This document shows, in pieces, positions 11,308 to 25,201 of a stretch of 64,000 nt of DNA (position 1 is the first letter of the stretch; each line of letters starts with the position of its first letter). The stretch lies in assembly GCA_965372795.1 (NCBI GenBank), contig CBDVDR010000004.1, forward strand, positions 1 through 64,000. The letters are read 5' to 3'. Under the pieces are notes generated by a model. That model saw only the letters and a list, made by a program, of their open reading frames with translations, was not told the DNA's origin and did no database searches. Position numbers and translations under genes: made by a program. The stretch is from an uncultured bacterium. Lineage in GTDB: Bacteria > Zixibacteria > MSB-5A5 > GN15 > FEB-12.

Positions 11308-14300
11308 TTGAATAACAGTATGGAATTCTCATCAGAAAATAAACTACGATTTAGGATTCTCAAATTGTTTTTAGTAATTTCTTTTTTTGTAATTTCTATT
11401 AATTTTTATAGTAAAAACAATTCAAATGCGATTATTGAAGCAAGAAGCCTTTATTTCGAAGAAACCACTTTAGACAATTTAAATTGGGAACAATCAATAG
11501 CCAAAACAGACTCGCTCTTTGAATTAAAAAAATACGACTTAGCAATTTCTATCGGGAATGAACTTCTAGAAAATGTTCAAACACGATTAGGGCAAGAAGA
11601 TACTATTGTTGCTGAAATTTTATACAAGTTGGGGATTTATAATGAAGAAGCTATTAATTATCCTATAGCAGAAAGTCTAAGTCGAAGAGCTTTATTAATT
11701 CAAGAAAAACATTTTGGTAAAGATAGTCCTCAAGTAGGTAATACTTTGATTTTATTAGGAACCGCATGTGGGAATCAAGGAAAATACGTAGAAAGTGAAC
11801 AGCTTTATAAACGAGCTTTAAAAATTTTGGAAAGTGCCCATGGTCCAGATCATAAAGAAGTTGCGCATTGTTTGAATAAGCTTGCAATAGTATGTAGATC
11901 TCAGGATAAAAATGAAGAAGCTAAAAATTATTTTAACCGATCTCTAAAAATCTATGAATCTATTTTCGGCAATAACCACAACTCAGTAGCCACTATTTTA
12001 AATAATCTGTCAAATCTTCATGCTAATGAAGGAAGACACAAATTGGCTGAAACATATTATTTCCGATGTAAGGAAATCTATGAAAATTTATATGGTGACT
12101 CACATCCAAACACAGCTACAATATATAACAATCTTGCATGTTTATATCACGAAGTAGGTAAATATTCAGAAGCAGAAAAACTCTTTAAGCGGGCTCTAGA
12201 TATAAGAGAAAAATTTTATGGTCCCGTATATCGCAGTGTTGCCACCACTCTTGGAAATCTTGCCACAGTATATCAGGATCAGGGAAGATATCTTAAAGCT
12301 GAACCTCTGTATTTGCGATCATTATCAATCAATGAAGAAATACTCGGAAAAGCTCATTTGTCAGTTGGAACATCACTTGACATATTGGGCAATTTTTATC
12401 GGATCCAGGGAAAGTATTCTAAAGCAGAAGATCATATTATTAGAGCTTTAGAAATCATTAAGAAAAGATTAGGTCAAAATCATTCCCAAATTGCAATTAG
12501 TATAAATAATTTAGCCGCCATATCACATGACCTTGGAAAGTTCGAAAAAGCCGAAACTCTTTACAACAAAGCTCTTTCAATGAGAATTAAAATCTATGGC
12601 ACGGAGCATCTGTATGTTGCAGAATCAAATAAGAACCTTGCCAGACTATACTATGACTGGGGTAAATATGAATTATCAGAACCTCTTTATAAACAAGCTC
12701 TGGTCATAAAAGAAAACTTATTAGGGTCTACTCATCCTATCGTTGGTGAGATTCAACAAGAGATAGCCAAACTATATGCAAGTGAGTATGATTCTATCCA
12801 AAGTGCTGAGTATTATGAAAAGTCATGGCATTCCAGACAGGAGTTTATTGAACATGTATTCTCATCTTCATCCGAAAACCAGAAATTGAGGTGGATTAAG
12901 AAATACCCTCTTATTGATAATTCCCTATTATCTCTAGCATTACAACAAAAAAATCAAACGCTGAACAAGACAGCTTTAAAAATGATCCTTTATGGTAAAT
13001 CGGCTGTCATAGATGCCATTCTTGCTGAAAAAGAAGCTGCGTACTGCAACTATGATGAAGATATCATGAAAATGCTAGAAGATCGTTCAAGCGTTTGTAA
13101 CCAAATTGCAAATCTTATCCTTTTTGACCAATCGAAAAATATTACCAACTCGACCAGCGATAGTCTTAAAAAACTATATGCTGTACAGGATTCTATTGAA
13201 CAAGAATTAAGCGTACAGTGTTCTGAATTTAAAAATGAGATTACTTCGACTCAGTTTAATCTTAATCAAATTGCATCAAATCTACCTTCAGAATCAGTGT
13301 TATGGGAATTTATAAAATATGAACCATTTGATTTTTATAGCCCTGGGACTGAAAAGGAAAGAACCGGAAAATCCAGATATGCTGTTTTTTCTTTAAATCA
13401 CAATGGTGAAGTATCAGCATTAGATCTGGGTGAATCTGATCATATTGACAGTCTAATAATGGCGACAAGAAAAATGATATACGATTCTGAAACTAGAATC
13501 TATTCACATCTCGCTCCTGAACTTGAATTACAACTTAAAGATGTAACCAGTAAGTTGTATAAACTTATTTTTGAGCCATTGGCAAAAGACCTTCAAGAGC
13601 AAACTAGTATACAAATATCTCTAGACGGTCAACTTCATCTTTTACCACTTGATATTCTTCCGATACCAGACGGATCCTATGTGATCGAAAAATATAGGCT
13701 TTCCTATTTATCATCGGGTAAAGATTTGTTAAAATCTAATACAGCGAGTAGTTTTTCAAATGATGTAGTTATAATAACAAATCCTGATTATAACAGAAGT
13801 ATTCAAGACGTTTCAAATCAAAACCAAAAAACTTTTGTAAAAAATATCAATTCAATTAGCCAACCAGTGAATAACAAAAAAGTGAATTACTCAGCACGTA
13901 AATTTATACCGTTATTATATTGCCAAAATGAAAAGGAATTGATCGTAAATACATTTATACAATTAGAGAATATTAATATCTATGAATATTCTGATGAATA
14001 TGCAACTGAATCGGTAATCAAACAACTAGAAATTTTTCCTCGAATTTTACACATTGCAACTCATGGTTATTATAACAATAATAAAGATTTCAATCGTAAA
14101 TTGTCTATCGACCACCCCTTTCATCACTCAGGGATCGTACTCGCTGGTGCTAATAATCTTTTCAAGACTGATGAAATTATCGCTAATGATTTCGAAAATG
14201 GAATATTAACAGCTTATGAAGTTTCAAGCTTAAATTTACAAGGAACAGAACTAGTCACTTTATCTGCATGCGAGACTGGATTGGGTGAGACTTTAAATGG

Positions 14301-14559
14301 CGAAGGTGTTTTTGGGCTTCGTCGGGCGTTTAAACATGCGGGAGCACAATCAATTCTTATGAGTCTTTGGAGAGTACAGGACAAAGAGACTTCTGTTCTT
14401 ATGGATGGATTTTATCGACGTTGGCTTATGGGAAACATATCTAAGCAAGATGCACTTCACAACACATCACTAAACATTTTAGATAATTGCCGAAAAAAAT
14501 GGGGTCATGGTCATCCTTTATTCTGGGGTGGTTTCATTTTAGCTGGCAATAACAATTGA
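11308..14559 (+). CDS. TPR-repeat (kinesin-light-chain type) plus CHAT (caspase-like) protease
   Basis: About ten 42-aa repeats (A..LNNLA..Y..G.Y..AE.L..RAL.I.E...G..H); CHAT dyad ILHIATHG and LSACETG; HPLFWGGF; N-terminal signal/TM. Confidence 0.92.
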   Translation: MNNSMEFSSENKLRFRILKLFLVISFFVISINFYSKNNSNAIIEARSLYFEETTLDNLNWEQSIAKTDSLFELKKYDLAISIGNELLENVQTRLGQEDTIVAEILYKLGIYNEEAINYPIAESLSRRALLIQEKHFGKDSPQVGNTLILLGTACGNQGKYVESEQLYKRALKILESAHGPDHKEVAHCLNKLAIVCRSQDKNEEAKNYFNRSLKIYESIFGNNHNSVATILNNLSNLHANEGRHKLAETYYFRCKEIYENLYGDSHPNTATIYNNLACLYHEVGKYSEAEKLFKRALDIREKFYGPVYRSVATTLGNLATVYQDQGRYLKAEPLYLRSLSINEEILGKAHLSVGTSLDILGNFYRIQGKYSKAEDHIIRALEIIKKRLGQNHSQIAISINNLAAISHDLGKFEKAETLYNKALSMRIKIYGTEHLYVAESNKNLARLYYDWGKYELSEPLYKQALVIKENLLGSTHPIVGEIQQEIAKLYASEYDSIQSAEYYEKSWHSRQEFIEHVFSSSSENQKLRWIKKYPLIDNSLLSLALQQKNQTLNKTALKMILYGKSAVIDAILAEKEAAYCNYDEDIMKMLEDRSSVCNQIANLILFDQSKNITNSTSDSLKKLYAVQDSIEQELSVQCSEFKNEITSTQFNLNQIASNLPSESVLWEFIKYEPFDFYSPGTEKERTGKSRYAVFSLNHNGEVSALDLGESDHIDSLIMATRKMIYDSETRIYSHLAPELELQLKDVTSKLYKLIFEPLAKDLQEQTSIQISLDGQLHLLPLDILPIPDGSYVIEKYRLSYLSSGKDLLKSNTASSFSNDVVIITNPDYNRSIQDVSNQNQKTFVKNINSISQPVNNKKVNYSARKFIPLLYCQNEKELIVNTFIQLENINIYEYSDEYATESVIKQLEIFPRILHIATHGYYNNNKDFNRKLSIDHPFHHSGIVLAGANNLFKTDEIIANDFENGILTAYEVSSLNLQGTELVTLSACETGLGETLNGEGVFGLRRAFKHAGAQSILMSLWRVQDKETSVLMDGFYRRWLMGNISKQDALHNTSLNILDNCRKKWGHGHPLFWGGFILAGNNN

Positions 14560-14666
14560 TATGATTCTTAAAACCTAAACTTGTGCGTTTTCCGAATTTG
14601 TTTAAAATAAAAATATCAATTCGATTAGATTTTGCTAGATTATAGAGATCTTCATCATGAAATTTC

Positions 14667-14694
14667 GTGGGCGGCAGACGTCCTCGTCTGCCCC
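14667..14694 (+). repeat. REP-like GC-rich palindrome (or terminator)
   Basis: GTGG-gc-GGCAGACG-tcct-CGTCTGCC-cc. Confidence 0.45.
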
Positions 14695-14886
14695 TTTCTA
14701 TCTATCCCATCAACCATTAATGATCCTTATCAATTTTAGGCAACCCATTTCCTGTTGTCAACTAATCTAAAGTACTTGAAATTGAACCGTGGGAATTCAT
14801 ACTCACTGTGACGAAGTTTATCAAATTCATATTTCTAATAAAATATCTCCTCGCTGTCCGAAGGAATAAAGCATACGAATTATGCA

Positions 14887-14914
14887 GGGCTACTTGGAAG
14901 ACATATCGAACTTT
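14887..14914 (+). repeat. att-like direct repeat, copy 1
   Basis: GGGCTACTTGGAAGACATATCGAACTTT; 26/28 identical to copy 2. Confidence 0.8.
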
Positions 14915-14934
14915 GATAAACCTATAACTTCGAA

Positions 14935-15468
14935 TCATATTTTTTGTTTGTACCATATGACCTTGCCCATTAATGGTTTGGGTGAGAGCATAACTACTGC
15001 TTTTTTTGCCAATTCCTTTGAGGAAGCAGTATTTTCTAAATTCAAGTATTGGTATATTGTTTTTTCTGGATTATTAATTGTATAATTTCTGATTGATCTT
15101 ACTAAAACATCAACTTTTCTACCTTTGTAGTATTTCATTATTTGGTTCGAGGGGTGTCTTCCAAATTTTGGATTAATATAATCCCAATTCCAAATAGAGC
15201 GGTAAGGAAGATGTTTTTTATTAAATGGATAAAAGAACCATATATCAAAGTCCTTTATACCATTGGATTTGTCATGAAAATGCATAGCAGCACCTTGACA
15301 AAGAGCTACAGCTATTGGTTTCTTAATATTGTATAATTTTTCCCATTTTTTACCATTGCCCTGAATAAAATATTCATTTAGACATTTAAAACTTCCATTA
15401 TACAACTCTATAAGATCATTTTTTGTGATTGGTTTTAAAGATCGTTTAATTTCCGTGTTTCCTCCCAA
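14935..15468 (-). CDS. Hypothetical protein, possible Pol-beta-like minimal nucleotidyltransferase
   Basis: AVALCQGAAMH...GIKDFDIWFFY (hG...DxD) and a later KVDVLVR acidic strand; start codon uncertain. Confidence 0.5.
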   Translation of the reverse strand: MGGNTEIKRSLKPITKNDLIELYNGSFKCLNEYFIQGNGKKWEKLYNIKKPIAVALCQGAAMHFHDKSNGIKDFDIWFFYPFNKKHLPYRSIWNWDYINPKFGRHPSNQIMKYYKGRKVDVLVRSIRNYTINNPEKTIYQYLNLENTASSKELAKKAVVMLSPKPLMGKVIWYKQKI

Positions 15469-15480
15469 CGGTTAGTTCAA

Positions 15481-15511
15481 GTAGGGTAGGATCCCAGTGA
15501 GTGACCTTGCC
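15481..15511 (+). repeat. Degenerate GTAG-type REP-like palindrome
   Basis: GTAG-GGTAGGATC-ccagtgagt-GACCTTGCC (imperfect stem). Confidence 0.3.
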
Positions 15512-15565
15512 ATCTAATTATATTCTTTATTTTGTATCAATTGTTAAATCCTGCAAATAATAAGC

Positions 15566-15593
15566 GGGCTACTTGGGATACATATCGAACTTT
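15566..15593 (+). repeat. att-like direct repeat, copy 2 (best candidate attL)
   Basis: GGGCTACTTGGGATACATATCGAACTTT; its junction context ATAATAAGCGG resembles the tRNA-side junction ATAATATGCGG. Confidence 0.8.
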
Positions 15594-15743
15594 TATTAAA
15601 AATATGTGTAGAGAACTCTGATTAATCTTAATTTGAAAAGCATGTGTAAACAACAGCAAAACTGGTACGAGTAGAATACTCTCTATTTTTAATTAAGCAT
15701 GTGGAAGTCCTCCTTAAAAGGATATAATGTGAGTTTATCAATT

Positions 15744-16706
15744 CTAGCTTAATCGGTATGGTTCTCCCAAGTTAATACTATCAATGTTTTCTTTTGCAAG
15801 TTTTATTAAAGTAAGAGTACTTTCAGAAACAAGTCTAATTAGTTTTTCTAAAACAATTTGAAATGTTGGGGTGGATCCTCCAACTTTACTAAAAAGAGTT
15901 GCTATTTTTTCTCTGTCTCCTTTATGCTCATACTTACCAATATTGTTAAACATGGTCTCAAGTAATGTATGAGAGTTTTTGTCTTTTATTGATTTTTTAT
16001 CAATTATTATATTAGGCGGTGCAGATTCTACAAAGGACCTAATTTCAGATAAAAGCTCTTTGTCGTTCAACCATCCAGGAGGAGTAGGTGTAAAAAACTG
16101 AAAATCATTACCATGAACACTCATTGTTGATCCTCGTTGCCTTGGTCTATTTGAGTGTACTATGAATCTATTTCGGAATATTCTAAAGTTGTAAAAAAGC
16201 CATAAGAGAGCTTCAGAGTAAATTTTCCAGAGTTCTGCTAGAGTATTTAAATTATTTTTTTCTAGTTCGACAACTAAATCAGAAAAAGGATGTGAAGTTT
16301 TTATATTTCCTCCTCCTACTATAATAGCTTGAAGACTCCATTGGTCTAAGAGAATTCCACCAAACATATATAGAGATTCCATGTCTGTCTTCATAAGATT
16401 AGTTAACTTATGCGATTCTTGAAATATTTTTTTAGCTTCTGAAGAGAATGGCTTTTGGGACCGACAGTTTTCAATTAAATAGGAACTTTCAATCTTTCCT
16501 AATTCAGACAATTCATTTCGCTGATTAAAAAGTCTCTCAGCTATTAATTTGCAGTTTTGAAGTCGTTCCAGAGAATAGGAACTATGATGAAAGAATGCAT
16601 ACGGACCAGCAGGAGGTTTTTTTCCTTCAAGTATAACTTTACTAAGTTCTCTAAGGTTTTCCTCTGCCTGATTAAATAACTTGCCAAGTTCTTCTTGAGA
16701 GATCAT
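15744..16706 (-). CDS. Hypothetical protein with HEPN-like RNase motif
   Basis: Helical protein with FRNRFIVHS (R-x5-H) motif. Confidence 0.5.
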   Translation of the reverse strand: MISQEELGKLFNQAEENLRELSKVILEGKKPPAGPYAFFHHSSYSLERLQNCKLIAERLFNQRNELSELGKIESSYLIENCRSQKPFSSEAKKIFQESHKLTNLMKTDMESLYMFGGILLDQWSLQAIIVGGGNIKTSHPFSDLVVELEKNNLNTLAELWKIYSEALLWLFYNFRIFRNRFIVHSNRPRQRGSTMSVHGNDFQFFTPTPPGWLNDKELLSEIRSFVESAPPNIIIDKKSIKDKNSHTLLETMFNNIGKYEHKGDREKIATLFSKVGGSTPTFQIVLEKLIRLVSESTLTLIKLAKENIDSINLGEPYRLS

Positions 16707-16835
16707 TTTCCATTTTCATTATTTATTACTATTTAATGTTATAGCATTATTATTTTCATATTCTTCAATATAATTTGTATTGTATAAAATAATAACTAAA
16801 AGAACAGTTATTGATGTTTGTACAATTTCTACAAG

Positions 16836-16863
16836 AGGCTACTTGAGATACAAATCAAATTTT
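16836..16863 (+). repeat. att-like direct repeat, copy 3 (degenerate)
   Basis: AGGCTACTTGAGATACAAATCAAATTTT; 23/28 identical to copy 2. Confidence 0.7.
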
Positions 16864-17087
16864 AGTTACTATGCACAAACTACAAACTTGAAACCACAAC
16901 ACATTACTAATCATAGGCTTAGGAAAAGATTACATAGAATAATAGAGACAAAGCGTTGTAACTATTGTGTTATTCTATGCTTAACTTTTTTATCGCTTGT
17001 TAGTTATAATTCAATTGACTGCAAAGCTTTATGTGATTAATATGTCTAATACTAAAGAAGCAACTAATCGTCTTATAGGGAAATCAA

Positions 17088-17867
17088 ATGATAAGTATCA
17101 ATGATTTGTTTAACAAAAATGCTAAATTAACAAACTCAGTTATATTATTTATAGGATTAGTTTTAATTGCTTGTGGTGTACTATTGCGTGAAAAAATACC
17201 TAATGAATCAATTATTTTAATAAGCATAGGAGCATCAATTGTTGCAAGTGCAATAGTTGTTTATGTATCTGCCAAATATCTAGTTAAAAGACAAAACGTT
17301 TTAGAGCTTATTGAAAAGTGGGGATTAATTGGTATCTTTAATACTCGATCAGAAATGAATCGAAGAGCTGATAAAACCTTTGTGAAACTTGAAAATAAAC
17401 TGGACATTGTTGGTTTTGGTTTTAGAGCATTTAGATCTGTCAAAGGCAGTGAAATTGAAGAAAAAGTAAAGAGAGGTTTACAAGTTAGAATTTTAACTAT
17501 GAACCCAGAATCTTCGATTGTTAAACAAAGAGAAAATGATGAGCATGAAGTACCTGGTCAAATTAAAAATACAATTAAAGACTTAATTGATTGGGTAGAG
17601 AGTTTAAAAAATAATAGCCCAAATAATTTAGTTCAAATAAAATTTTATGATAATCTGCCATTACAATCTTACTATAGACAAGATAATCATATATACACAG
17701 GACCATATTTATTTGGAAAGCCAAGTCAACAAACAATCTCTTTTGAATATAAAAATAATTCATTGGGATTTAATTATTGGGCTTCATATTTTGAAAGTGT
17801 ATGGAACAATTCAGATTTTGCTAAAGAGAATTATATTGAATGCTCAAATATGTTTTGTGAAAACTGA
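17088..17867 (+). CDS. Two-TM protein with DUF5919/PLD-like cytoplasmic domain
   Basis: Two N-terminal hydrophobic helices; LDIVG, VRILTMNP.S..V.QRE.DE, IKFYD.LP...Y.R.D...Y.GPYL, YF..VW; no HKD motif. Confidence 0.7.
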   Translation: MISINDLFNKNAKLTNSVILFIGLVLIACGVLLREKIPNESIILISIGASIVASAIVVYVSAKYLVKRQNVLELIEKWGLIGIFNTRSEMNRRADKTFVKLENKLDIVGFGFRAFRSVKGSEIEEKVKRGLQVRILTMNPESSIVKQRENDEHEVPGQIKNTIKDLIDWVESLKNNSPNNLVQIKFYDNLPLQSYYRQDNHIYTGPYLFGKPSQQTISFEYKNNSLGFNYWASYFESVWNNSDFAKENYIECSNMFCEN

Positions 17868-17890
17868 GAATTACATGGAACTTGTTATTT

Positions 17891-19012
17891 ATGAGCAATA
17901 ATCACAATATAGAATTTAAAGCTTTTTATGATGACAGAGAAAAGGCAATTGATAAGTGTAAAAAAATTGGTGCAACTTTAATCAGGACTCATCAACAGAA
18001 AGATACTTATTATGATGTAAAAAAAGGTAAAATGAAACTGCGAGAAGACCAAGAATTTGGAAATCAAATAATTTATTATGATCGATTAGCAAATTCTATT
18101 GCAAGATCTTCCCATTATAATAAAGTTGACATAACCCCACTAACTAATGATCTATCTGACTTTTTTAAAGAAGCATTTGGGATTAAAGCTATAATTGAAA
18201 AGCATCGCATAACTTATGAAACAGAATATGCTCTTATTAACATTGATAATTTTCCACTAATAGGAAACTTTATAGAAGTTGAAGTTTTGATGGAAAAAGC
18301 CAATTCCACTGAAAAAGGACTTCAAGTTTCTTCCGAACTCCAAAATTACTTAGAAATCGAACCTAATAGCTTAGTCTCATTTTCGTATGCTGATCTTTTA
18401 TTAATGTATGAGAAAGCTGCTTCGTGGAGAAAAAAAATTAATGAGAGCAGTAATGCTGGTAAGTTGTTTTTGGTCGATGGTTGTAGTTGTTCGGGCAAAA
18501 CATCCTTGACGCAACAATTATCTCTAGAACAAAATAATAGCATCAAATTTATCCGAAGATATTGCACTAGACCAAAGAGAATAAATGATAATTCAGAATC
18601 TGAATATGTATTCGTTGATGCAAATCACTTTTACCAGATGGCATCTAATGGGGAATTCATAGAGTTTAGAGATTTTGATTTTGGTATGAGTTATGGGTTA
18701 AGCTGGAAAGATGTAATGAGTCCAATTGTTAATGGGCATAATGCCTTTGGAATTATAAATTTTGGAAGCATTTTACACATAAAAAAAATATTTCCTGAGG
18801 CGATAACAATTCTTATTAATGCACCTTTAGAGACAATTAAAAAAAGATTAAATCAGCGGGGATATAATGCTACTGAACAGATCGAGGAAAGATTGGAAAA
18901 TGCAAAATTAGTTGATTCATATATAGATTACTATGATTATGTCATTAACAACGACGACGGGATGTTCAATGAAGCTCTAGAACAGATACATAATATTATC
19001 TCTTCAGAATAA
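17891..19012 (+). CDS. Fusion of a CYTH (class IV adenylate cyclase/CyaB-like) domain and a guanylate kinase/PhnN-like domain
   Basis: NIEFKA, QKDTYY, KMKLRE, EKHR, GNFIEVEV, SYADLL (CYTH); DGCSCSGKTS, RYCTRPKR, FIEF, YGL, RLNQRG, YDYVINND (GK); ATG at 17891 preferred as start. Confidence 0.85.
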   Translation: MSNNHNIEFKAFYDDREKAIDKCKKIGATLIRTHQQKDTYYDVKKGKMKLREDQEFGNQIIYYDRLANSIARSSHYNKVDITPLTNDLSDFFKEAFGIKAIIEKHRITYETEYALINIDNFPLIGNFIEVEVLMEKANSTEKGLQVSSELQNYLEIEPNSLVSFSYADLLLMYEKAASWRKKINESSNAGKLFLVDGCSCSGKTSLTQQLSLEQNNSIKFIRRYCTRPKRINDNSESEYVFVDANHFYQMASNGEFIEFRDFDFGMSYGLSWKDVMSPIVNGHNAFGIINFGSILHIKKIFPEAITILINAPLETIKKRLNQRGYNATEQIEERLENAKLVDSYIDYYDYVINNDDGMFNEALEQIHNIISSE

Positions 19013-19042
19013 TAATTACAATAATTTATAGAAAGAAGTTAA

Positions 19043-19507
19043 ATGAAAGAAATATTTAATTCGGATGTTCAATTTCGATATATTGGAATTAAAGAGAATG
19101 AATATGAAATACCTGGCATTTGTTTTTGTTATGCTAATAAGAAAAGCGCAAAAGAATTTTTTACAATGATTTACGATTACATGACTTTAAAAAGTGGAGA
19201 AAAACAATTTAATATTGAGCTCCGATTACAAGATGATAATTGCTATACTCTCGAAATGATAATAGAAACACCTGAAAAAATTCTTAAAACCATAATTTCT
19301 GATATTATTCCATCCGATATCGAAAAAATACCCAAAAATCTTCGTAGTGTCTCTTATTATGTTATCCTTGCAGGATATGATAAAGCTGGAGAATTTACTT
19401 TACTTCCAACTGATAAGTATCATTTATTTAAAAAAGAACTTCTTATTGATGGAAAAAAAGTTGAAGGTGCATCCAATTGTTCTATAGATTGGGATAAAGT
19501 ATTTTAA
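19043..19507 (+). CDS. Hypothetical protein (154 aa)
   Basis: Clean ORF with short intergenic gaps inside the operon; no recognisable motif. Confidence 0.6.
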   Translation: MKEIFNSDVQFRYIGIKENEYEIPGICFCYANKKSAKEFFTMIYDYMTLKSGEKQFNIELRLQDDNCYTLEMIIETPEKILKTIISDIIPSDIEKIPKNLRSVSYYVILAGYDKAGEFTLLPTDKYHLFKKELLIDGKKVEGASNCSIDWDKVF

Positions 19508-19551
19508 TACAATGTGTTGATTAAAAGTACTAATTAATAGGTGTTTTAATT

Positions 19552-20691
19552 TTGTTAAATGCTACTAATAATTTTGTTAAAAGAAACTTAAATAATAAAA
19601 AAGTTAATTGTAACTATGGGTTAATTATAGTTCAGCATTTGTTACCTGACACTGAATGTTTTCTTGATATTCTAAAAAAAGCTGGATTCAATATTATAAA
19701 AGTTTATGGAATTGAATATTCTACGAAAAATATTGTTCTAGAGCAAATTAAGAATAAAGACATAAGTGTTATATCGCCGAGACATAGAAATCTAAAAAAA
19801 ATCATTAGACAAGATTTAATTAATGATTTAGAAATTGGTACATCAAATTTAAAAGGTATATTTATACATGAAGTAGGTGGCTATTTTGCAGACATTTTCT
19901 CAAAACCTTTTAACATAAAAAATAGTTTTTACAATAAAATAGAAGGTGTCATTGAAGAGACAAAACAGGGACATTGGAGATATAACAGCTTAAAATCTCT
20001 AAAATTGCCAGTATTAAGTATAGCCGATTCTGTTCTGAAAGATGTTGAAGGTAAATATGTTGGTGAAAGCGTTGCAAAAGTAGTGTTTTCAGATTTAAGA
20101 GATTTAGGTCTAAAACCAAAGTCATTAAAAATAGGTGTTACTGGATTCGGAATTATCGGTGGAAGTGTGGCTAAGTCCCTTCTTAATCAATCATGTGATG
20201 TTGCAATATTTGATAAATCATCTATTAAAATAATTAATGCAACGCTTGATGGTTTTAAAATAAAAAATAAAAATAAGCTAATTAAAGAATCTGATTTGAT
20301 CATTGGTTCAAGTGGAAGTAGAGTTATATCATATAATGAACTTAAAGATCTAAAGGATAATGTAATATTGGCAAGTGCTAGTTCAAGGTCAATTGAGTAC
20401 CCTATTAATAAAATAAAGAGAACTGGCAGTATGACAGTTTTATCTGATTATGTTAAAGAATATAAAATGCCTTGGAACAAGTGCATTCGGATCATTAATG
20501 AGGGTTTTCCTATTAACTTTCGATTTAGCAGCCTTCCGATACATATCTCAGACCTAATGTTCTGTCAAATTTCTTATTGTATTTATAAGCTGATGAATGG
20601 AAAATTTAAATCTGGGCTGTATAGACTTTCAGAACAAGAAGAACAAATTATTGCAAATTTATGGTTAGATTCACATGCAAAAAGCTCTTAG
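19552..20691 (+). CDS. Divergent S-adenosylhomocysteine hydrolase-like NAD-binding protein
   Basis: QHLL, HEVGGY (cf. DDGGD), EETKQG (cf. EETTTG), PVLSIADSVLK (cf. PAINVNDSVTK), GFGIIG Rossmann motif, NEGFPINF (cf. AEGRLVNL). Confidence 0.75.
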   Translation: MLNATNNFVKRNLNNKKVNCNYGLIIVQHLLPDTECFLDILKKAGFNIIKVYGIEYSTKNIVLEQIKNKDISVISPRHRNLKKIIRQDLINDLEIGTSNLKGIFIHEVGGYFADIFSKPFNIKNSFYNKIEGVIEETKQGHWRYNSLKSLKLPVLSIADSVLKDVEGKYVGESVAKVVFSDLRDLGLKPKSLKIGVTGFGIIGGSVAKSLLNQSCDVAIFDKSSIKIINATLDGFKIKNKNKLIKESDLIIGSSGSRVISYNELKDLKDNVILASASSRSIEYPINKIKRTGSMTVLSDYVKEYKMPWNKCIRIINEGFPINFRFSSLPIHISDLMFCQISYCIYKLMNGKFKSGLYRLSEQEEQIIANLWLDSHAKSS

Positions 20692-20766: not shown

Positions 20767-21546
20767 ATGATTACTCAACTCGCTTTAAAAAACTTTGAAA
20801 TAATCTGGCAACTGTTTGAAAATAAAGAGAAAGGTATGCTTGATGCTGGGGGAGCTATGTTTCTGGTTGATCCTTTTGAGCAGTTTTTTTCAAATGAGTT
20901 TGCATTCAATTTGACTGAGGAATCAGCTCATACTCATTTTCATTCACAAATGGAAAAATGGGGACAGATTGAGCAAAATGAACATGAAATAGAAATTGAA
21001 CAAGAATGTGAATTGCCCGATGGGAAAATCTTTAAGAAGACAAGGTTTAAAGATCCAGAAGTTAGATGGGCGAGAAATTTTATTATTTATTCTTTTTATA
21101 ATCTTGCATGTCTAGCTACTAATAATAAAACTATTGAAGAATTAATTTACATAGCTGTGAAAGATAGAGAAATACTAGACACAGATGGTAAAGATATTAA
21201 GGCATTTATTAAATTAATCGAATTAAGTAAATCTTTTCAATCAGCTGAATGGGCAAAAGATATAATTGATAAAGCAACTGCAAATAATAATGAAGATTTT
21301 TTTAATAAATTAAGCAAAGCTGTTAAAAAAACTACTGCTAAAGATAAATTTGATACTGCTATAAGATGGATAGGTGTAATCATGCTTTGGTATCTTGGCG
21401 GTAAACACATGAAGCCACGTCGAAATTTCATGAATCTTCTTCAACAAATGGATATAATTCCAAAATCCACAATTTTCTCAGAAGAGTCTTTTCGTAGTAT
21501 GTTATATAACTTAGGTCTTACTAAAGATTTAAGTGCAAGTAAATAA
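20767..21546 (+). CDS. Hypothetical protein (element backbone or cargo)
   Basis: 259-aa ORF, helical, no recognised motif. Confidence 0.6.
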   Translation: MITQLALKNFEIIWQLFENKEKGMLDAGGAMFLVDPFEQFFSNEFAFNLTEESAHTHFHSQMEKWGQIEQNEHEIEIEQECELPDGKIFKKTRFKDPEVRWARNFIIYSFYNLACLATNNKTIEELIYIAVKDREILDTDGKDIKAFIKLIELSKSFQSAEWAKDIIDKATANNNEDFFNKLSKAVKKTTAKDKFDTAIRWIGVIMLWYLGGKHMKPRRNFMNLLQQMDIIPKSTIFSEESFRSMLYNLGLTKDLSASK

Positions 21547-21620
21547 GCCTCATTTCTACTTTTAGCTAAAAATATTCAAATCAATTAAACTGAAGCCTCA
21601 TAATTTAATGTGAGGTAACA

Positions 21621-21809
21621 TTGCGTAAAGATCTGATTCAAAAAGCTAGAGAACTGTACGGAGATCATTACAGTCATTCTCTGTCTGATTCTGAATGTAT
21701 TGAAATAATCAGAGATCTAACCTCATTCGGTAAAGCCTTAATAGAAATCGATAAAATGAATAATCAGGGAGTTACAAATAATGAACTCAAAAATAAAAGT
21801 AGTAATTAG
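21621..21809 (+). CDS. Small hypothetical backbone protein
   Basis: GAGG RBS before TTG; overlaps the next gene. Confidence 0.5.
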   Translation: MRKDLIQKARELYGDHYSHSLSDSECIEIIRDLTSFGKALIEIDKMNNQGVTNNELKNKSSN

Positions 21810-22071
21810 AAGAGTTAAGGATACTGAGCCTTTATTGGCATTTGCTGATATTACTCTAAGAGTGAAATTCGGTGAAATAACTATAAAACGGTTTAAGATA
21901 CTTGAAAATGATTCTAAAAAGCCCTGGGTAGCTTTTCCTCAAGCTCAGTACCAGACTTTCCTATCAACAAAATATATCAATCTGCTTCACATGAATAAAA
22001 GGGTTGAGGATTACATTAAGAACCAAATTATGAAAGAATATAAGAATGCGATTAAATATAGCAAAAAATAA
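21781..22071 (+). CDS. SpoVG-like nucleic-acid/ssDNA-binding protein
   Basis: LLAFADITL....ITIKRFKILE...PWVAFPQ pattern of SpoVG; GGAG RBS. Confidence 0.7.
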   Translation: MNSKIKVVIRRVKDTEPLLAFADITLRVKFGEITIKRFKILENDSKKPWVAFPQAQYQTFLSTKYINLLHMNKRVEDYIKNQIMKEYKNAIKYSKK

Positions 22072-22082
22072 CCCTGTAATAT

Positions 22083-22310
22083 TTGGCAACTCTATTGCAG
22101 GATTGCAGACGGTAGAAATCTTCCCACCGAAGGTGGGCTACCGGTGCCAATCACTGCCGGTACCAAGTAACGCTCGCAGAGCGTTGCTTGGGGGCAGTGG
22201 TCAAAGTTGTCGGCGAAGCCGTAAATGCAGTATGCATTTCTTGCTTCTTGCGGGCGGATTTATCCTCCTCTTCTGAGCCGAAGGCGAAGCTCTTAGTTAA
22301 CTTGAAGATT
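22083..22310 (+). other. Putative replication origin: multi-hairpin single-strand origin plus candidate nick site (AACTTG/A)
   Basis: GC-rich island of hairpins with GAA/GCA/GTA triloops directly upstream of Rep; TAACTTGAAGATTA resembles the phiX174/pC194-type nick sequence. Confidence 0.65.
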
Positions 22311-22351: not shown

Positions 22352-23302
22352 ATGAACAAAGACGAAAAAACAGATAATATACAACAAGTTTATAATAAAT
22401 TTGGTAGTGCTCAAGGCAAATACCTTAAAGAAGAAGATTTAAGCTTTCGTGAAAAAGTATTTAACTCAATTCTAAATAGATCCAGAAATTATAATCAACA
22501 ATTCAATTTAACGGGTGGTAAAAGATTTAAAAAAAGATCTGAACAACTACATAAACAAGCATATAGGTTTCGATATTGTGGTTATGAGTATTTAAAATTA
22601 CAATGCAATAGCTGTTCACAAGCTTATATCTCCAGAAATAGATGTGAATCTAGAATTTGTACTCATTGCTCAAAGAAAATTGGTGCAAAAGCCAGAAAGA
22701 GTATAAATAATCTATTAGGTAATATAAAAATCACTCATCAAAAAAGAATCATGCATCTTGTAGTTACGCAAAAACATGAACGAAATTATGAGCCTAATGA
22801 ATTTGATGTTAGAAGGTTAGGTAACAATGTAAAAAAGTTAATGCATAAGTTATACCCTAAAAAAGTACATGAATGCGGGGCTTTTGGTGTTATTGAAATG
22901 GGTGAAAAAGGTAACGGCTTACATATGCATTTAATTGTATATGGTTACTTCTATCCTCAAAAATATATATCAAAAGTATGGAAAGAAATTACAGGCGATA
23001 GTGATATTGTTAATATAAGAGAAGTAGATGGAATTAAGAAATGTGTAAACTATTTATTAAAATATGTTACTAAACCTCCAGATTATAACAATCCTAATCA
23101 ACTGGCATTGTACTTAGATGCATTAACTGGTACAAGACGTATCAGAACTTATGGATTGTTTTATAATTTTCCAATTATGAAAAAGAATCTATTTCCTTGT
23201 GTTAAATGTGGAGGTCTGTTGATGTACGGCGGTACTGATGGGGGTTTAGGAATTCCACTAGATGCAATGTTTATTGAAGATGCTGTAAAAACCGCATGCT
23301 AA
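22352..23302 (+). CDS. rep: HUH rolling-circle replication initiator (Rep_1/IS91-like, Zn-binding)
   Basis: Cys cluster CG..C..C...C....C..C; HUH GLHMHLIV; catalytic YLLKY; RRIRTYG; C-terminal CVKCG. Confidence 0.85.
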   Translation: MNKDEKTDNIQQVYNKFGSAQGKYLKEEDLSFREKVFNSILNRSRNYNQQFNLTGGKRFKKRSEQLHKQAYRFRYCGYEYLKLQCNSCSQAYISRNRCESRICTHCSKKIGAKARKSINNLLGNIKITHQKRIMHLVVTQKHERNYEPNEFDVRRLGNNVKKLMHKLYPKKVHECGAFGVIEMGEKGNGLHMHLIVYGYFYPQKYISKVWKEITGDSDIVNIREVDGIKKCVNYLLKYVTKPPDYNNPNQLALYLDALTGTRRIRTYGLFYNFPIMKKNLFPCVKCGGLLMYGGTDGGLGIPLDAMFIEDAVKTAC

Positions 23303-23596: not shown

Positions 23597-25069
23597 ATGC
23601 AAAAATCTATTATCTATACCAGAGTATCATCAAAAGAACAGGAAAAATCAGGCTACTCTATTCCTGCTCAAATTCGCATTCTAAGAGAGTATGCACAAAA
23701 GAATAATATTCATATAGTAAAAGAGTTTAAAGATTCTGAAACAGCAGGTAAAGCAGGTAGAACGGCATTTACTGAAATGGTTCAACTCTTAGAATGTGAT
23801 AAATCAATCAATGTGATACTTGTTGAAAAAACTGATCGATTATACCGTAACTTTAAAGATCATGTAACAATTGATGAATTGAATATTGAAATTCATTTTG
23901 TAAAAGATAATCGGATAATAGGTAAAGATTCAAAACCTTCTGATAAGTTCGTGCATGATATTGAAACAGCTCAGGCTAGATTCTACTTAAATAATTTATC
24001 TCAAGAAGTTAAAAAAGGGATGCATCAAAAAGCTCTATCAGGAAAATATCCAGGTGGACCTGTTCCCTTTGGATACTTGAGGAATAAATACACAAAATCA
24101 ATTGAGATAGATCCTGAAAGAATTGAAGTAATAAGATATTTATATGAATTATATTCTGATGGTAATAATTCTATTGATAAATTGCATGCAGAAGCTAAAA
24201 GATTAAATCTATCATATCCAAAAACAGGCAGAATAATAACAAGATCTGAAATAGATAGAATGCTAAAGAAACAATTCTATACGGGTAAATTTGTTTGGGA
24301 AGGTGTTCTATATCAAGGTGATCATCCTGCAATAATAGATTCTATGTTATTTAATCAAGTGCAAGATGTGTTTAAGCAAAGATCTAATGGCAGATTCTCG
24401 AAAAGGAATTTCACCTTTAGCAGACTAATGGAGTGTGGTCATTGTAATCATACAATTACGGCTGAGATTAAAAAGAATAAATATATTTATTATCATTGCA
24501 CCGGATACGGAAATTTACATAAGAAAGAATATGTATCTGAATCTAAAATAGATTCTATGTTTGCAGAAGTTGTAAGCAATGCATCTTTACCACATGAATT
24601 TTATATGTTCATGAAGGATTGCCTAGAATATGAATATAGTAACAAGAAGATAAAGACTGCTAGTGAAAGAGATAAATTAGAATTATCAAAAGATAAAATT
24701 GAGAATGATATGAAGAAGGCTTTCCAATCAAAAATTGAAGGTTTGATACATGAAGAATTCTTTAAATCAGTATTCAATGGTTATCAAAAACAATTAGAAT
24801 CAATAAATTACAGACTTAACAATCTAGATGAATCAATTATTAATGATTTTGAGTTTTCAATGAAAGCTATCGAACTTAGTTATAACGCTGAATCACATTA
24901 CCTTAAAGCAATTCCTGCATTAAAACGTGATGTACTAAAATCCATGCTATCGAACTGCTATTTGAAAGATGCAACCCTTTATCCCATATACAATAAAGCC
25001 TTTGACATATTCGCCAAAGGTATTGCATCTGATAATATGCGGAGAGGCAGGGATTCGAACCCTGGATAG
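23597..25069 (+). CDS. Large serine recombinase (resolvase, recombinase and Zn-ribbon domains)
   Basis: IYTRVSSKEQ catalytic Ser, DRLYRN, PFGY, CGHC...YYHC; C-terminus MRRGRDSNPG is encoded by the antisense of the tRNA. Confidence 0.95.
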   Translation: MQKSIIYTRVSSKEQEKSGYSIPAQIRILREYAQKNNIHIVKEFKDSETAGKAGRTAFTEMVQLLECDKSINVILVEKTDRLYRNFKDHVTIDELNIEIHFVKDNRIIGKDSKPSDKFVHDIETAQARFYLNNLSQEVKKGMHQKALSGKYPGGPVPFGYLRNKYTKSIEIDPERIEVIRYLYELYSDGNNSIDKLHAEAKRLNLSYPKTGRIITRSEIDRMLKKQFYTGKFVWEGVLYQGDHPAIIDSMLFNQVQDVFKQRSNGRFSKRNFTFSRLMECGHCNHTITAEIKKNKYIYYHCTGYGNLHKKEYVSESKIDSMFAEVVSNASLPHEFYMFMKDCLEYEYSNKKIKTASERDKLELSKDKIENDMKKAFQSKIEGLIHEEFFKSVFNGYQKQLESINYRLNNLDESIINDFEFSMKAIELSYNAESHYLKAIPALKRDVLKSMLSNCYLKDATLYPIYNKAFDIFAKGIASDNMRRGRDSNPG

Positions 25070-25129
25070 AGCAATATACCCTATAACGGATTAGCAATCC
25101 GCCGCTTTCAGCCGCTCAGCCACCTCTCC
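25040..25129 (-). tRNA. tRNA-Ser(GCT)
   Basis: GGAGAGG acceptor stem, anticodon arm GCGGA-TTGCTAA-TCCGT, long variable arm, GGTTCGAATCC T-loop, discriminator G, CCA not encoded. Confidence 0.95.
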
Positions 25130-25201
25130 GATCTGAATTTGTGAATGAATTATAGGTTGTTAGTGATAGAATATCAAGACCTTTTTACCGGTCAAAGCAG
25201 A

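Follow-up and report, generated by a model that had tools for sequence, protein, structure and literature searches.

Stacked inserts at the 3' end of a tRNA-Ser gene in an uncultured Zixibacteria genome, probably bounded by half-sites of a large serine recombinase

Here we describe an island behind a tRNA-Ser(GCU) gene in an uncultured bacterium of the Zixibacteria, within a window of 64,000 nt (the whole stretch of DNA that was analysed). The part described here, between positions 14659 and 25129, consists of tandem units at a single address, with three junctions in addition to the one at the tRNA gene, and units 1 and 2 carry no recombinase gene. Its features are as follows.

14659..14886, minus strand: unit 0, truncated, a module of about 230 nt with no gene after it here
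14661-14694: REP-like hairpin in unit 0, with copies on at least 6 contigs of the genome
14761-14733: promoter-like site in unit 0 (TTGACA, 17 nt, TAAAAT), from the promoter scan
14863-14849: terminator-like hairpin in unit 0, from the terminator scan
14871-14885: imperfect form of a 15-nt palindrome in unit 0, seen at the module's other copies
14887..14914, plus strand: repeat copy 1, taken here as unit 1's far att arm, on the element side (P'-type)
14935..15468, minus strand: gene of unit 1, 177 aa, nucleotidyltransferase (NTase)-like
15472..15565, minus strand: non-coding leader ahead of the 177-aa gene, at the end of unit 1 nearest the tRNA
15566..15593, plus strand: repeat copy 2, the best copy, with GC directly before it
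15744..16706, minus strand: gene of unit 2, 320 aa, all-helical, HEPN-like
16836..16863, plus strand: repeat copy 3, read as the far arm of the recombinase-bearing unit, the most decayed copy (5/28 changed), without a preceding GC
17088..20691, plus strand: cargo run of four genes
20767..22276, plus strand: four small ORFs encoding 259, 62, 96 and 76 aa; the product of 96 aa is SpoVG-like
22352..23302, plus strand: HUH-type rolling-circle Rep-like protein, 316 aa
23363..23575, plus strand: MerR/HTH_17-type helix-turn-helix protein, 70 aa
23597..25069, plus strand: large serine recombinase (LSR), 490 aa
24999..25020, minus strand: hairpin resembling a terminator, on the tRNA strand 19 nt past the tRNA and inside the LSR coding tail (fold z-score -4.07)
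25039..25129, minus strand: tRNA-Ser(GCU), with the invariant GC at 25039-25040 and the host-side (B'-type) half-site at 25041-25060

The repeat finder placed the three direct copies in one family. Compared with the middle 28-mer at 15566, copy 1 matches at 26/28 positions (2 changes) and copy 3 at 23/28 (5 changes), exactly as counted in an earlier, sequence-only reading of this DNA, and a 24-nt version of the motif with up to 3 mismatches occurs at 2 sites in the window and 0 in 100 shuffles. The same reading had noted one minus-strand gene per interval and a third copy preceding the cargo run; both statements hold, as the 177-aa and 320-aa ORFs are backed by homologues and copy 3 lies about 250 nt ahead of the plus-strand genes starting at 17088. 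Other ORFs of at least 50 aa in the first interval are short, lie on the opposite strand and overlap the 177-aa ORF. A motif-like site with 4 mismatches at about 14422-14445 falls within the CHAT gene and is probably due to chance, since the Pfam CHAT domain reaches residue 1081 of 1083.

Parts of these units recur elsewhere in the genome (G000; contigs are numbered C1 and so on). Unit 0 is 88-93% identical to C13:49726-49977, C13:52124-52345 and C3:82531-82267, and modules of its type are located elsewhere in G000 between a junction and the gene of a unit. The leader at 15472..15565 is 72-79% identical to stretches preceding three other motif copies (C3:83459-83343, C1:68117-68233 and C3:80486-80365). 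Units with unrelated genes thus have end modules in common, and at least some units carry a strong promoter match of their own. One class of unit end contains an A-rich run and a hairpin (CCCTG...CAGGG) about 15-20 nt ahead of the GC; the same kind of feature, CCTTTG...CAAAGG, is found in the 3' coding tails of LSR genes.

The cargo run of the unit beside the tRNA gene encodes a DUF5919 protein, a fusion of CYTH and guanylate-kinase-like domains, a 154-aa protein and an adenosylhomocysteinase-like NAD-binding protein. A rolling-circle replicon had been proposed to accompany the recombinase, and the Rep gene does share its unit with the LSR: the protein matches Pfam REP_ORF2-G2P above the family cut-off (E 2.6e-8), with HMH and YLLKY motifs in its translation. 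We infer that the 70-aa helix-turn-helix protein could be a directionality factor or a regulator. The LSR gene is intact and has the domains and catalytic serine of a serine integrase: resolvase (PF00239, 9.3e-25), recombinase (PF07508, 1.5e-11) and zinc ribbon (PF13408, 8.1e-8), with YTRVSS at residues 7-12 of the N-terminus. The top named NCBIfam models are CcrB (E 1.6e-23) and CcrA (E 1.8e-19), but the scores of 83.2 and 70.2 bits lie far under the equivalog cut-offs of 900 and 700, and the protein is therefore not a Ccr. In a scan of genome and metagenome contigs, full-length relatives were at most 34% identical, and two partial matches, 85 and 177 residues long, were 60% and 47% identical.

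The LSR ORF overlaps the 3' end of tRNA-Ser(GCU) by 31 nt, so that its final codons are the complementary strand of the tRNA gene. This arrangement is shared: of the 17 homologues of the LSR inspected within the order, 15 border directly on the 3' end of a tRNA gene (4/4 in this genome and 11/13 in relatives; tRNA-Ser, Asp, Asn or Gln), as do 4/5 distant homologues from other phyla. The arm, or a variant of it, terminates four LSR-bearing units on the side away from the tRNA. These are the window's unit, which ends in the decayed copy 3; a unit on G000:C10, with its arm at 46371, 19.8 kb from the tRNA; a unit on G044:C57 (LSR 61% identical), ending in the arm or a variant; and one in G130 (LSR 58%), with a variant arm 13.1 kb from tRNA-Ser-UGA. 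A counterpoint to the link between LSR and arm is that the only LSR-bearing unit of the window has the most decayed arm.

Across the genome, the motif follows tRNA genes. G000 contains 13 copies at up to 6 changes in 28, each located on the 3' side of a tRNA gene (Ser-GCU, Ser-GGA, Ser-UGA, Ser-CGA or Gln) and pointing the same way with respect to it; the ten beyond the window lie at three other tRNA-Ser genes and at tRNA-Gln. The motif core is patchily present in the order, in 68 of 160 genomes, and was not found in the same-genus genome; where placement was inspected, in G005, G004, G085 (Ser-GCU and Leu-CAG), G069, G021 and G057, it again lies 3' of tRNA genes and in that one orientation. 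Had the motif been scattered independently of the recombinase, it would have spoken against an attachment site. It does recur, but every copy is 3' of a tRNA gene, and this supports the earlier suggestion that the copies are LSR attachment half-sites delimiting the units of a composite island. Within units of 300-2500 nt, 10 of 12 ORFs are co-directional with the tRNA. Some copies lie just 50-90 nt past the tRNA gene, and 19 of 37 intervals between junctions measure only 49-109 nt, a length for which serial insertion of circles does not account. Arrays without a nearby LSR form the majority (G000 C3, C13 and C1; G069, where it is 136 kb off; G085, where it is on another contig), and in G057, a genome about 71% complete, no LSR was detected at E 1e-20.

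An empty-site comparison found FapA and tRNA-Ser(GCU) to be syntenic in 9 relatives. Six window proteins (four from left of the island and two unit proteins) had no tblastn match at E 1e-5 in the tRNA-flank stretches of 7 relatives, and in the same-genus genome FapA is just 65% identical and the island side lacks synteny.

The shape of the site is informative. In a profile of 46 distinct sites from this genome and 11 others, with positions -2 to +7 lying outside the search pattern, only positions -2 to +26 carry high information content, which is about zero on either side; this delimits a sharp block of 27-28 nt composed of GC and 25-26 nt. A likeness between the motif and the tRNA-Ser end had been pointed out before and is real: the arm matches the tRNA half-site (the last 20 nt) at 13/20 positions with one 5-nt gap after position 14, a score that 0.07% of 200,000 random contig 25-mers reach with the gap allowed anywhere (p about 7e-4). 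The 5-nt insertion sits ahead of the T-loop hexamer, the arm reading GC + GGGCTACTTGGGAT + ACATA + TCGAAC and the tRNA GC + GGAGAGGCAGGGAT + TCGAAC, in right-hand half-sites only. The same offset rule is observed at tRNA-Asn, in G024 (19/20) and on G000:C7, where two identical arms lie 849 nt apart behind an LSR element. A candidate tRNA-Asp arm on G000:C16 was rejected, as its 12/20 was no better than its reverse-strand control. Not all ends conform. A second class of far ends ("type B") is identical to the tRNA over 16-17 nt and does not follow the offset rule, and in G040, the closest complete-genome relative (LSR 57%), the far end is a plain, imperfect copy of the tRNA end without the 5-nt shift. 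The left (P) arms have no common motif, and inspection revealed no inverted TCGAAC in them.

This design resembles that of serine integrase sites. In the account of the Listeria LI/A118 integrase by Rutherford et al. (2013, PMC3783163), as far as drawn on here, a half-site takes up about 25 bp on the element and about 20 bp on the host, the zinc-ribbon motif occupies attP positions 16-24 and attB positions 11-19, a shift of 5 bp that brings this outer motif nearer the centre in attB, and the two sites have little identity beyond the central dinucleotide. The window sites are alike in these respects; here the design is predicted from sequence, and the rule applies in right-hand half-sites only. 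Stacking would also call for a hybrid (attR-like) target to be accepted; phage integrases accept none unless a directionality factor is present. Only GC(G/A)G is common at the junctions, which fits the 2-bp crossover of a serine recombinase.

We also considered that the motif might be a dispersed repeat with some other role (a REP-like element, a signal for transcription, or an element in tRNA trailers that serves processing or acts as a decoy), the LSR being nearby by coincidence. The genome does have other dispersed hairpin repeats, such as that at 14661-14694 on at least 6 contigs, and many motif copies are 50-110 nt apart with nothing between them or follow a tRNA gene by 50-90 nt. Yet no Rfam family was matched at E up to 1 over 14400-17200, no inverted repeat or hairpin symmetry is visible by eye in the motif, and its conservation is one-sided. 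The motif also measures exactly GC plus one attP-size half-site, copies the tRNA half-site with the 5-bp offset of serine integrases, bounds gene-sized foreign inserts and LSR elements, and is patchy across the order, with no copy found in the same-genus genome. We regard this explanation as very improbable.

Based on these observations, we consider it probable that the island is a serial stack of tRNA-3'-end inserts separated by element-side, attP-type half-sites of an LSR clade, with insertion most likely carried out by a large serine recombinase. The 28-nt repeats would be the attP-type half-sites of a clade that inserts DNA at tRNA 3' ends, and the arm may be read by the recombinase as the LI integrase reads attP: the inner part GGGAT (positions 10-14) is common to arm and tRNA half-site, and the outer hexamer TCGAAC, the T-loop complement, lies 5 bp further out than in the tRNA. 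Crossover most likely falls in or beside the invariant GC, that is, the discriminator base and the next base. With every insertion the tRNA would be kept intact and gain a new trailer, while older inserts would be displaced outward; from such displacement it follows that a junction within the stack should run from the end of unit n through GC into the 25-nt arm of unit n-1. The copies would then be the arms of four serially inserted units, which from old to new are the truncated unit (reduced to its promoter module), the NTase-like unit, the HEPN-like unit and, next to the tRNA, a putatively self-sufficient unit of 8.2 kb with the cargo operon, HUH Rep, HTH protein and LSR.

Of the small-unit proteins, the one of 177 aa has 236 database homologues, and no Pfam, NCBIfam or PADLOC family was matched. 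Its predicted structure (pLDDT 87.7) retrieves, with low scores (Foldseek E 0.03; VIA Z 5.7-3.9), mostly nucleotidyltransferases of the Pol-beta type, topped by TENT5 and CCA-adding-type enzymes, and G59 and D73-x-D75 are invariant in the family alignment. The 320-aa protein has 83 database homologues, none of them in the order's 159 other genomes, and no Pfam match; its model (pLDDT 85.9) resembles HEPN toxins (Z 8.7, 7.6 and 7.5), with many unrelated helical bundles scoring alike. R178 and H184 are invariant in its family alignment, at a spacing that fits the Rx4-6H motif of HEPN proteins. Profile searches of PDB sequences with both proteins yielded nothing under E 0.09. The labels "NTase-like" and "HEPN-like" given at the outset are plausible, and the fold matches behind them are low-scoring or non-specific. 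A HEPN/MNT (type VII toxin-antitoxin) pairing in one operon was considered and rejected, as the NTase-like gene is in a separate unit, across junction 2.

Cargo elsewhere in the arrays is mixed. PADLOC returned weak matches only (the CYTH-kinase fusion matched VakA at 1.6e-5, and the CHAT protein matched TPR models), and the G000 arrays further contain nitroreductase, Zn-ADH, AhpC-like and DUF2200 genes. The suggestion that the island stockpiles defence genes may hence apply to part of the cargo and does not describe the rest. In G095, a genome of another genus, a 66%-identical homologue of the 177-aa protein likewise lies between a motif copy and a junction, and its neighbours differ; the stretch, in which these neighbours are unannotated, revealed no HEPN-like gene. 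For a 151-aa cassette protein no homologue was found in the order's other genomes. A 515-aa cassette protein has homologues in 11 of them, one directly behind tRNA-Asn without a recognisable arm, and the motif was absent within about 1.5 kb at all nine loci examined. Among cargo homologues in other genomes, the motif thus flanks one of two for the 177-aa protein and none of nine for the 515-aa protein.

That tally bears on whether the small units move at all. They may be relics, once-complete LSR elements stripped of the recombinase and most genes, which never moved as small units, so that no capture or shuffling takes place at present. Such decay would suit cargo homologues that are mostly not motif-flanked, the visible truncation of unit 0, the decayed state of copy 3 and its junction, the mini-units of 49-109 nt that resemble gutted elements, and the likeness of CCCTG...CAGGG unit ends to the CCTTTG...CAAAGG of LSR coding tails. 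However, tblastn with the LSR at E 1e-3 found no pseudogene remnant in the C3, C13 and C1 arrays or in units 0-2. The arms of LSR-less units surpass that of the LSR unit in conservation and are near-invariant in 12 genomes amid unrelated flanks, which speaks for function or a recent arrival from a pool selected for mobility. Promoter-bearing end modules are common to units with different genes, and the 177-aa unit is found again, still as a unit, in a second genus. A collection of relics is in our view unlikely. It is plausible, given the recurrence in G095 and the conserved arms, that LSR-less units are mobilised by an LSR acting in trans, alone or together with neighbours.

A bolder version of this idea we put forward tentatively, and with more doubt than belief. 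An LSR clade using the universal T-loop sequence as its outer (zinc-ribbon) motif may run a true gene-cassette system, in which single-gene cassettes, some with a promoter-like site and each ending in a 27-nt arm, would be inserted, excised and exchanged in trans at the 3' ends of tRNA-Ser, Leu and Gln, and with other arms at Asn and Asp. It would be the serine-recombinase counterpart of the integron, spread across an uncultured order.

In integrons, IntI acts on single-strand-folded attC sites, and a resident integrase lies next to attI and a common promoter. The island likewise has rows of mostly one-gene, mostly same-orientation units at a fixed address, each with a recombination site, and had been called an integron-like array; unlike integrons, it involves another enzyme class and double-stranded half-sites, and it lacks a fixed platform, resident integrase and common promoter. 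The recombinase rides on an inserted unit, and some units bear their own promoter-like site, so the term does not fit. A genuine integron-type system, with a tyrosine recombinase working on folded single-stranded sites and the LSR a passenger, would give the same array look, and a tyrosine integrase gene does adjoin the LSR on G000:C10 (63405-64493). Against this, no tyrosine recombinase (Phage_integrase domain) is encoded among the proteins of the window island or the C3, C13 and C1 arrays, no attC-like inverted repeat is visible by eye in the motif, only about 2-4 nt are common at the junctions, and some units have a promoter-like site of their own; the likelihood is negligible.

We read the stack as closer to SCC and pseudo-SCC composites and to the Dehalococcoides ssrA islands than to an integron. 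In staphylococcal SCC/SCCmec and pseudo-SCC elements, LSRs (CcrAB, CcrC) target the 3' end of a single conserved gene, rlmH (orfX), for insertion, and successive inserts are stacked with repeated att sequences between them, some members lacking a recombinase and the cargo varying. The comparison with SCCmec drawn earlier is apt, as all of these traits find a likeness here; the differences are that the address is the 3' end of tRNA-Ser(GCU) instead of rlmH, that a single LSR gene is present instead of a pair, that many units are single-gene and 0.7-2.3 kb long, and that the host is an uncultured lineage.

The Dehalococcoides islands, so far as the account of McMurdie et al. (2011, PMC3146451) was drawn on, lie in tandem behind a small-RNA gene with a tRNA-like 3' end; the 3' end of a CcrB-like LSR gene overlaps the att site or RNA gene, its stop codon falling outside the island, and recombinase-less islands are interpreted as cis-mobilisable and moved by accretion, with insertion mapped from repeats. 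The tandem arrangement at a small-RNA or tRNA gene, the overlapping LSR 3' end and the recombinase-less members are all paralleled in our island. According to the same portions, the repeat there copies 20 bp of the ssrA end, with insertion in the T-loop, whereas here we propose insertion at the discriminator and a 5-nt-shifted mimic arm; those islands are several kb long, with a six-gene integration module and a second, small serine recombinase, whereas units here go down to one gene. A cassette-capture system built on an LSR had been proposed; stacked LSR islands with recombinase-less members behind a small-RNA gene were already published in that paper.

The same source cites the concept of CIMEs, which keep both att ends, have no recombination genes and are positioned in tandem beside a competent element, whose departure could take them along (PMC3146451). 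Our units share with CIMEs the tandem, recombinase-less arrangement at one att address and are much smaller and more numerous. To our knowledge, the described cases of CIME accretion involve tyrosine integrases of ICEs in streptococci. Prochlorococcus tycheposons, in the portions of the preprint drawn on (bioRxiv 10.1101/2020.12.28.424599), are elements at tRNA genes with replication genes, cargo, partial tRNA repeats and decayed remnants, in which later integrations push older ones inward, and an LSR occurs in 27 of 937 elements. They are similar in tRNA address, replication genes with cargo, successive integration and decayed remnants; they use overwhelmingly tyrosine recombinases and partial-tRNA repeats, and those portions make no mention of one-gene arrays with a dedicated arm. 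A full-text search of a literature collection returned no description of serine-recombinase single-gene cassette arrays at tRNA genes.

The stack resembles a smaller, single-gene-scale form of the LSR islands known from staphylococci and Dehalococcoides. If LSR-less units move, it would represent a second, mechanistically unrelated rack of exchangeable single genes at a fixed, safe address, with double-stranded att half-sites and a serine recombinase in place of IntI and attC. The half-site reading predicts that the 14-nt inner part is tRNA-specific and that the position of the T-loop hexamer differs by 5 bp from host to element; this reading would also explain how one LSR clade is retargeted among tRNA genes, a matter of relevance to serine-integrase engineering. 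Assembly breaks and "hypothetical" islets behind tRNA genes may then become readable as cassette arrays.

Here we confirm the repeats and intervals described in the sequence-only reading: a repeat search of the window found the three direct motif copies at 14887, 15566 and 16836, the outer two differing from the middle copy at 2/28 and 5/28 positions, as claimed. One minus-strand gene lies in each interval, a 177-aa ORF in the first and a 320-aa ORF in the second, and the gene families behind both are real (236 and 83 database homologues, respectively). With up to 3 mismatches allowed, a 24-nt version of the motif matched two window sites and had no match in 100 shuffled sequences. The 28-nt repeat may be read as the element-side att half-site, or arm, of a large serine recombinase (LSR), and GC plus arm as the junction between stacked units. 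A degenerate motif-like stretch at 14422-14445 (+), 465 nt to the left of copy 1, departs from the core at 4/18 positions; it falls in the CHAT domain's coding region of a CHAT-TPR gene (11308-14559) and is probably a chance resemblance.

Features of unit 3, the LSR-bearing unit, and its tRNA gene
17088-20691, plus strand: four-gene run encoding a DUF5919 protein, a CYTH and guanylate-kinase-like fusion, a 154-aa protein and an adenosylhomocysteinase-like protein
Upstream of the LSR gene: four small ORFs
Upstream of the LSR gene: Rep-like protein with HMH and YLLKY motifs
Upstream of the LSR gene: MerR/HTH_17-type protein, 70 aa
23597-25069, plus strand: LSR, 490 aa, with all three LSR domains
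25039-25129, minus strand: tRNA-Ser(GCU)

The LSR gene terminates 31 nt inside the 3' end of tRNA-Ser(GCU), the complementary strand of which encodes the final nine LSR residues. The LSR frames in the window (23597-25069) and on contig C10 of the same genome (64716-66164) both reach a stop only within the tRNA gene; a circular element would thus encode different terminal residues, nine of them for the window LSR and three for that of C10. The same property has been reported for dsiB of Dehalococcoides (PMC3146451). A terminator-like hairpin in the LSR tail lies on the tRNA strand, 19 nt past the tRNA (fold z-score -4.07), and therefore the new trailer of the tRNA comes from the element. A strong promoter-like site (TTGATA, 17 nt, TATAAT; 11/12) is located at 25149-25177 (-), just upstream of the tRNA. 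In the four-gene run, the CYTH domain is class IV cyclase-like, its fusion with the guanylate-kinase-like domain has a weak PADLOC match to VakA (1.6e-5), the 154-aa protein is an orphan and the adenosylhomocysteinase-like protein is NAD-binding; the run is a possible module for nucleotide-based signalling or defence.

Allowing up to 6/28 changed positions, the whole assembly contains 13 motif copies: the three window copies and ten more, of which C3 holds six, C10 two, and C13 and C1 one each. All 13 are located 3' of a tRNA gene and share the orientation relative to it that is seen in the window. Outside the window, the neighbouring tRNA is Ser-GGA on C3, Ser-UGA on C10, Ser-CGA on C13 and Gln on C1. 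All four LSR genes in the genome abut a tRNA 3' end, at Ser-GCU (window), Ser-UGA (C10), Asp (C16) and Asn (C7). The C3, C13 and C1 arrays contain neither an LSR gene nor an LSR remnant at E 1e-3.

Arrays and units elsewhere in the genome (up to 10 junctions in the LSR-less arrays)
C3, 71372-85400: LSR-less array at tRNA-Ser-GGA
C13, 40300-52520: LSR-less array at tRNA-Ser-CGA
C10, 46372-66151: LSR unit of 19.8 kb at tRNA-Ser-UGA, with a good motif copy at its end
C7, 33900-44630: second stack, running from tRNA-Asn and an LSR through a 9.8-kb unit to a pair of identical 25-nt arms

Cargo of the C3 and C13 arrays includes a nitroreductase, DUF2200, Zn-ADH, a GTA-type holin and amidase, an RHS-repeat protein, and an adenylate-cyclase/AAA/TPR giant with a cNMP-binding partner. 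The C10 unit carries type I restriction-modification genes, a uracil-DNA-glycosylase-like gene, a tyrosine integrase adjoining the LSR and a gene for a 1812-aa ParA/LRR/Roc-COR/NB-ARC/TPR protein. The C7 LSR is 26% identical to that of the window, and its arms (43757 and 44606, minus strand, 849 nt apart) are each preceded by AAGC.

Nearly all motif copies are preceded by GC. In a motif-anchored alignment of 46 distinct sites, drawn from this genome and 11 others, information content was high between -2 and +26 and dropped to near zero on either side; the search pattern did not include GC or positions +1 to +7. The conserved block is thus GC plus 25-26 nt. The arm is laid out as GC, GGGCTACTTGGGAT, ACATA, TCGAAC and the tRNA as GC, GGAGAGGCAGGGAT, TCGAAC, where GC are the last two bases ahead of the acceptor stem of the true tRNA. 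With a single 5-nt gap after position 14, the arm matches 13/20 of the last tRNA nucleotides, a score reached by only 0.07% of random 25-mers drawn from the contig. The same construction holds for tRNA-Asn (19/20 matches in the relative G024), and both C7 arms obey the rule of 14 nt, 5 nt and T-loop hexamer. In the Listeria LI integrase, the zinc-ribbon domain motif is reported at 16-24 in the attP half-site and at 11-19 in the attB half-site, a 5-bp shift (Rutherford et al. 2013, PMC3783163). The simplest reading, which is well supported and which we consider probable, is that the repeat represents a half-site of attP type, with its attB-type counterpart at the tRNA end. On this simplest reading of the sites, the outer motif would be the complement of the T-loop and crossover would occur in or beside the invariant GC, the 5-nt shift being visible only in right-hand half-sites.

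Integration of this kind would build a stack stepwise. A circle bearing its own end, GC and the arm would recombine with trailer, GC and tRNA, placing the element end against the tRNA and the arm against the former trailer; the next insertion at the same tRNA end would leave an internal junction of older unit end, GC and newer arm. The observed junctions have this form. Ordered from oldest to youngest, the contents of the window would be the stump followed by units 1, 2 and 3, of 679 nt, 1270 nt and 8.2 kb.

The sequences before GC are of several types: the palindrome GCATACgaaGTATGC behind a hairpin, an ending GCCATTtatAATGGC, a 94-nt leader, and two LSR-gene coding tails. A 230-nt module before copy 1 (14659-14886) recurs at 88-93% identity in three other genome locations. 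Two of these locations lie between a junction and a unit's gene; after the third comes a motif copy, with no gene behind it on the map. On the gene's strand, the module presents a terminator-like hairpin and then the best promoter match of the region (11/12). Nothing follows the module in the window, which marks it as the remaining stump of an earlier unit. Such signals are not on all unit ends; that of unit 1, for example, does not fold. The GC-rich hairpin at 14661-14694 is REP-like, has copies at 93-97% identity on C1, C5, C10, C12, C13 and C17, and also serves as a terminator-like site after the CHAT gene.

The small LSR-less units are candidate mobile cassettes but may instead be relics of larger elements. 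In favour of cassettes, their arms are almost invariant while everything else differs, end modules are common to units with unrelated genes, and the arrays yielded no LSR remnants at E 1e-3; in 11 array stretches, ORFs of units of 300-2500 nt are co-directional with the tRNA in 10/12. The 177-aa gene recurs in G095, a genome of the order, between an arm and a junction, at 66% identity and with different neighbours. Other observations speak against cassettes. The other homologue of the 177-aa gene in the order (G045) has no motif nearby. For a 515-aa cassette protein, homologues occur in 11 other genomes, and the motif is near 0/9 of the loci fetched. The unit ends of one class look like the coding tails of LSR genes, and a second class of far ends consists of a 16-17 nt tRNA copy without the 5-nt shift. 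Furthermore, 19/37 inter-junction intervals measure 49-109 nt, a size that neither circle insertion nor site-specific excision can yield. These mini-units comprise an arm and a unit end with no gene (e.g., C3:79014-80394, and G117:C65, G057:C19 and G034:C58 in relatives).

The labels "NTase-like" and "HEPN-like" proposed for the two cassette proteins are reasonable but not established, as fold scores were low or non-specific. Neither protein matched a family in Pfam, NCBIfam or PADLOC. The 177-aa model (pLDDT 87.7) gave low-score matches to Pol-beta-type nucleotidyltransferases (ANT(4') at E 0.03 in Foldseek; by VIA, TENT5 at Z 5.7 and 5.5, a CCA-adding enzyme at 5.2 and MNT at 3.9). In its alignment, G59 is invariant and is followed 13 residues later by D73-x-D75, a pattern that fits the NTase signature. 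The all-helical 320-aa model (pLDDT 85.9) matched HEPN toxins at Z 8.7, 7.6 and 7.5 over nearly whole targets, although unrelated bundles score equally; R178 and H184 are invariant. The two genes sit in separate units and do not form a classical HEPN/MNT operon. The 177-aa family (gene 14935-15468, -) retains 59-74% identity across Methylococcales, Desulfobacula, Deltaproteobacteria and Thorarchaeota archaeon records, which points to an unusually conserved and widely transferred protein for one without a Pfam family.

Related genomes were searched for the motif, as the sequence-only reading had suggested, using an 18-nt core at up to 2 mismatches: it occurs in 68/160 genomes of the order, versus 9/160 for the core read backwards, and was not found in the single same-genus genome. 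Motif rows stand directly behind a tRNA in G005 and G004 (Ser-GCU), G085 (Ser-GCU; Leu-CAG), and G069, G021 and G057 (Ser-UGA), while the stretches fetched from G034 (10-kb contig), G117:C65, G085:C5:204-216 kb, G095 and G023 contained no tRNA. At a threshold of E 1e-80, 42/160 genomes have an LSR homologue. Among the 13 loci fetched from relatives that include DNA past the gene's 3' end, 11 adjoin the 3' end of a tRNA gene, for Ser, Asp, Asn or Gln, and four of five distant homologues from other phyla likewise adjoin a tRNA 3' end. Within the window's clade, the far end of the G044 unit (LSR identity 61%) is marked by the motif, located 9.7 kb upstream and on one contig with the LSR, and G130 (58%) has a variant arm at its far end, 13.1 kb from tRNA-Ser-UGA; the far end in G040 (57%) has instead a plain imperfect copy of the tRNA end.

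The integron-like capture suggested earlier matches the look of the array as an analogy, but the platform does not match, because the recombinase itself rides on a mobile unit and some units bring their own promoter-like site. The nearest described systems are SCC composites (from general knowledge and the discussion in PMC3146451), Dehalococcoides ssrA islands and tycheposons. By score, the window's LSR falls outside the Ccr equivalogs, with 83 bits where the cut-off is 900. The ssrA islands are described as tandem islands behind a tRNA-like gene end, with a CcrB-like recombinase gene extending over the att site and recombinase-less members interpreted as cis-mobilisable (PMC3146451); tycheposons combine serial tRNA-gene integrations with replication genes, and 27/937 have an LSR (bioRxiv 10.1101/2020.12.28.424599). 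The present arrays differ in their smaller scale, down to one gene per unit, in a dedicated 25-nt arm mimicking the tRNA end with a 5-nt offset, in insertion at the discriminator, and in the number of tRNA addresses occupied within one genome. A full-text literature search found no published description of such arrays.

Stacking as proposed here would demand that the enzyme accept a hybrid target. To our knowledge, phage integrases do not do so unaided; the Ccr recombinases of SCC are a precedent. Copy 3 and its junction are decayed, and therefore any exit of unit 3 may now have to include unit 2, or both unit 2 and unit 1. Such joint exit with its neighbours would be one route by which cassettes become cargo.
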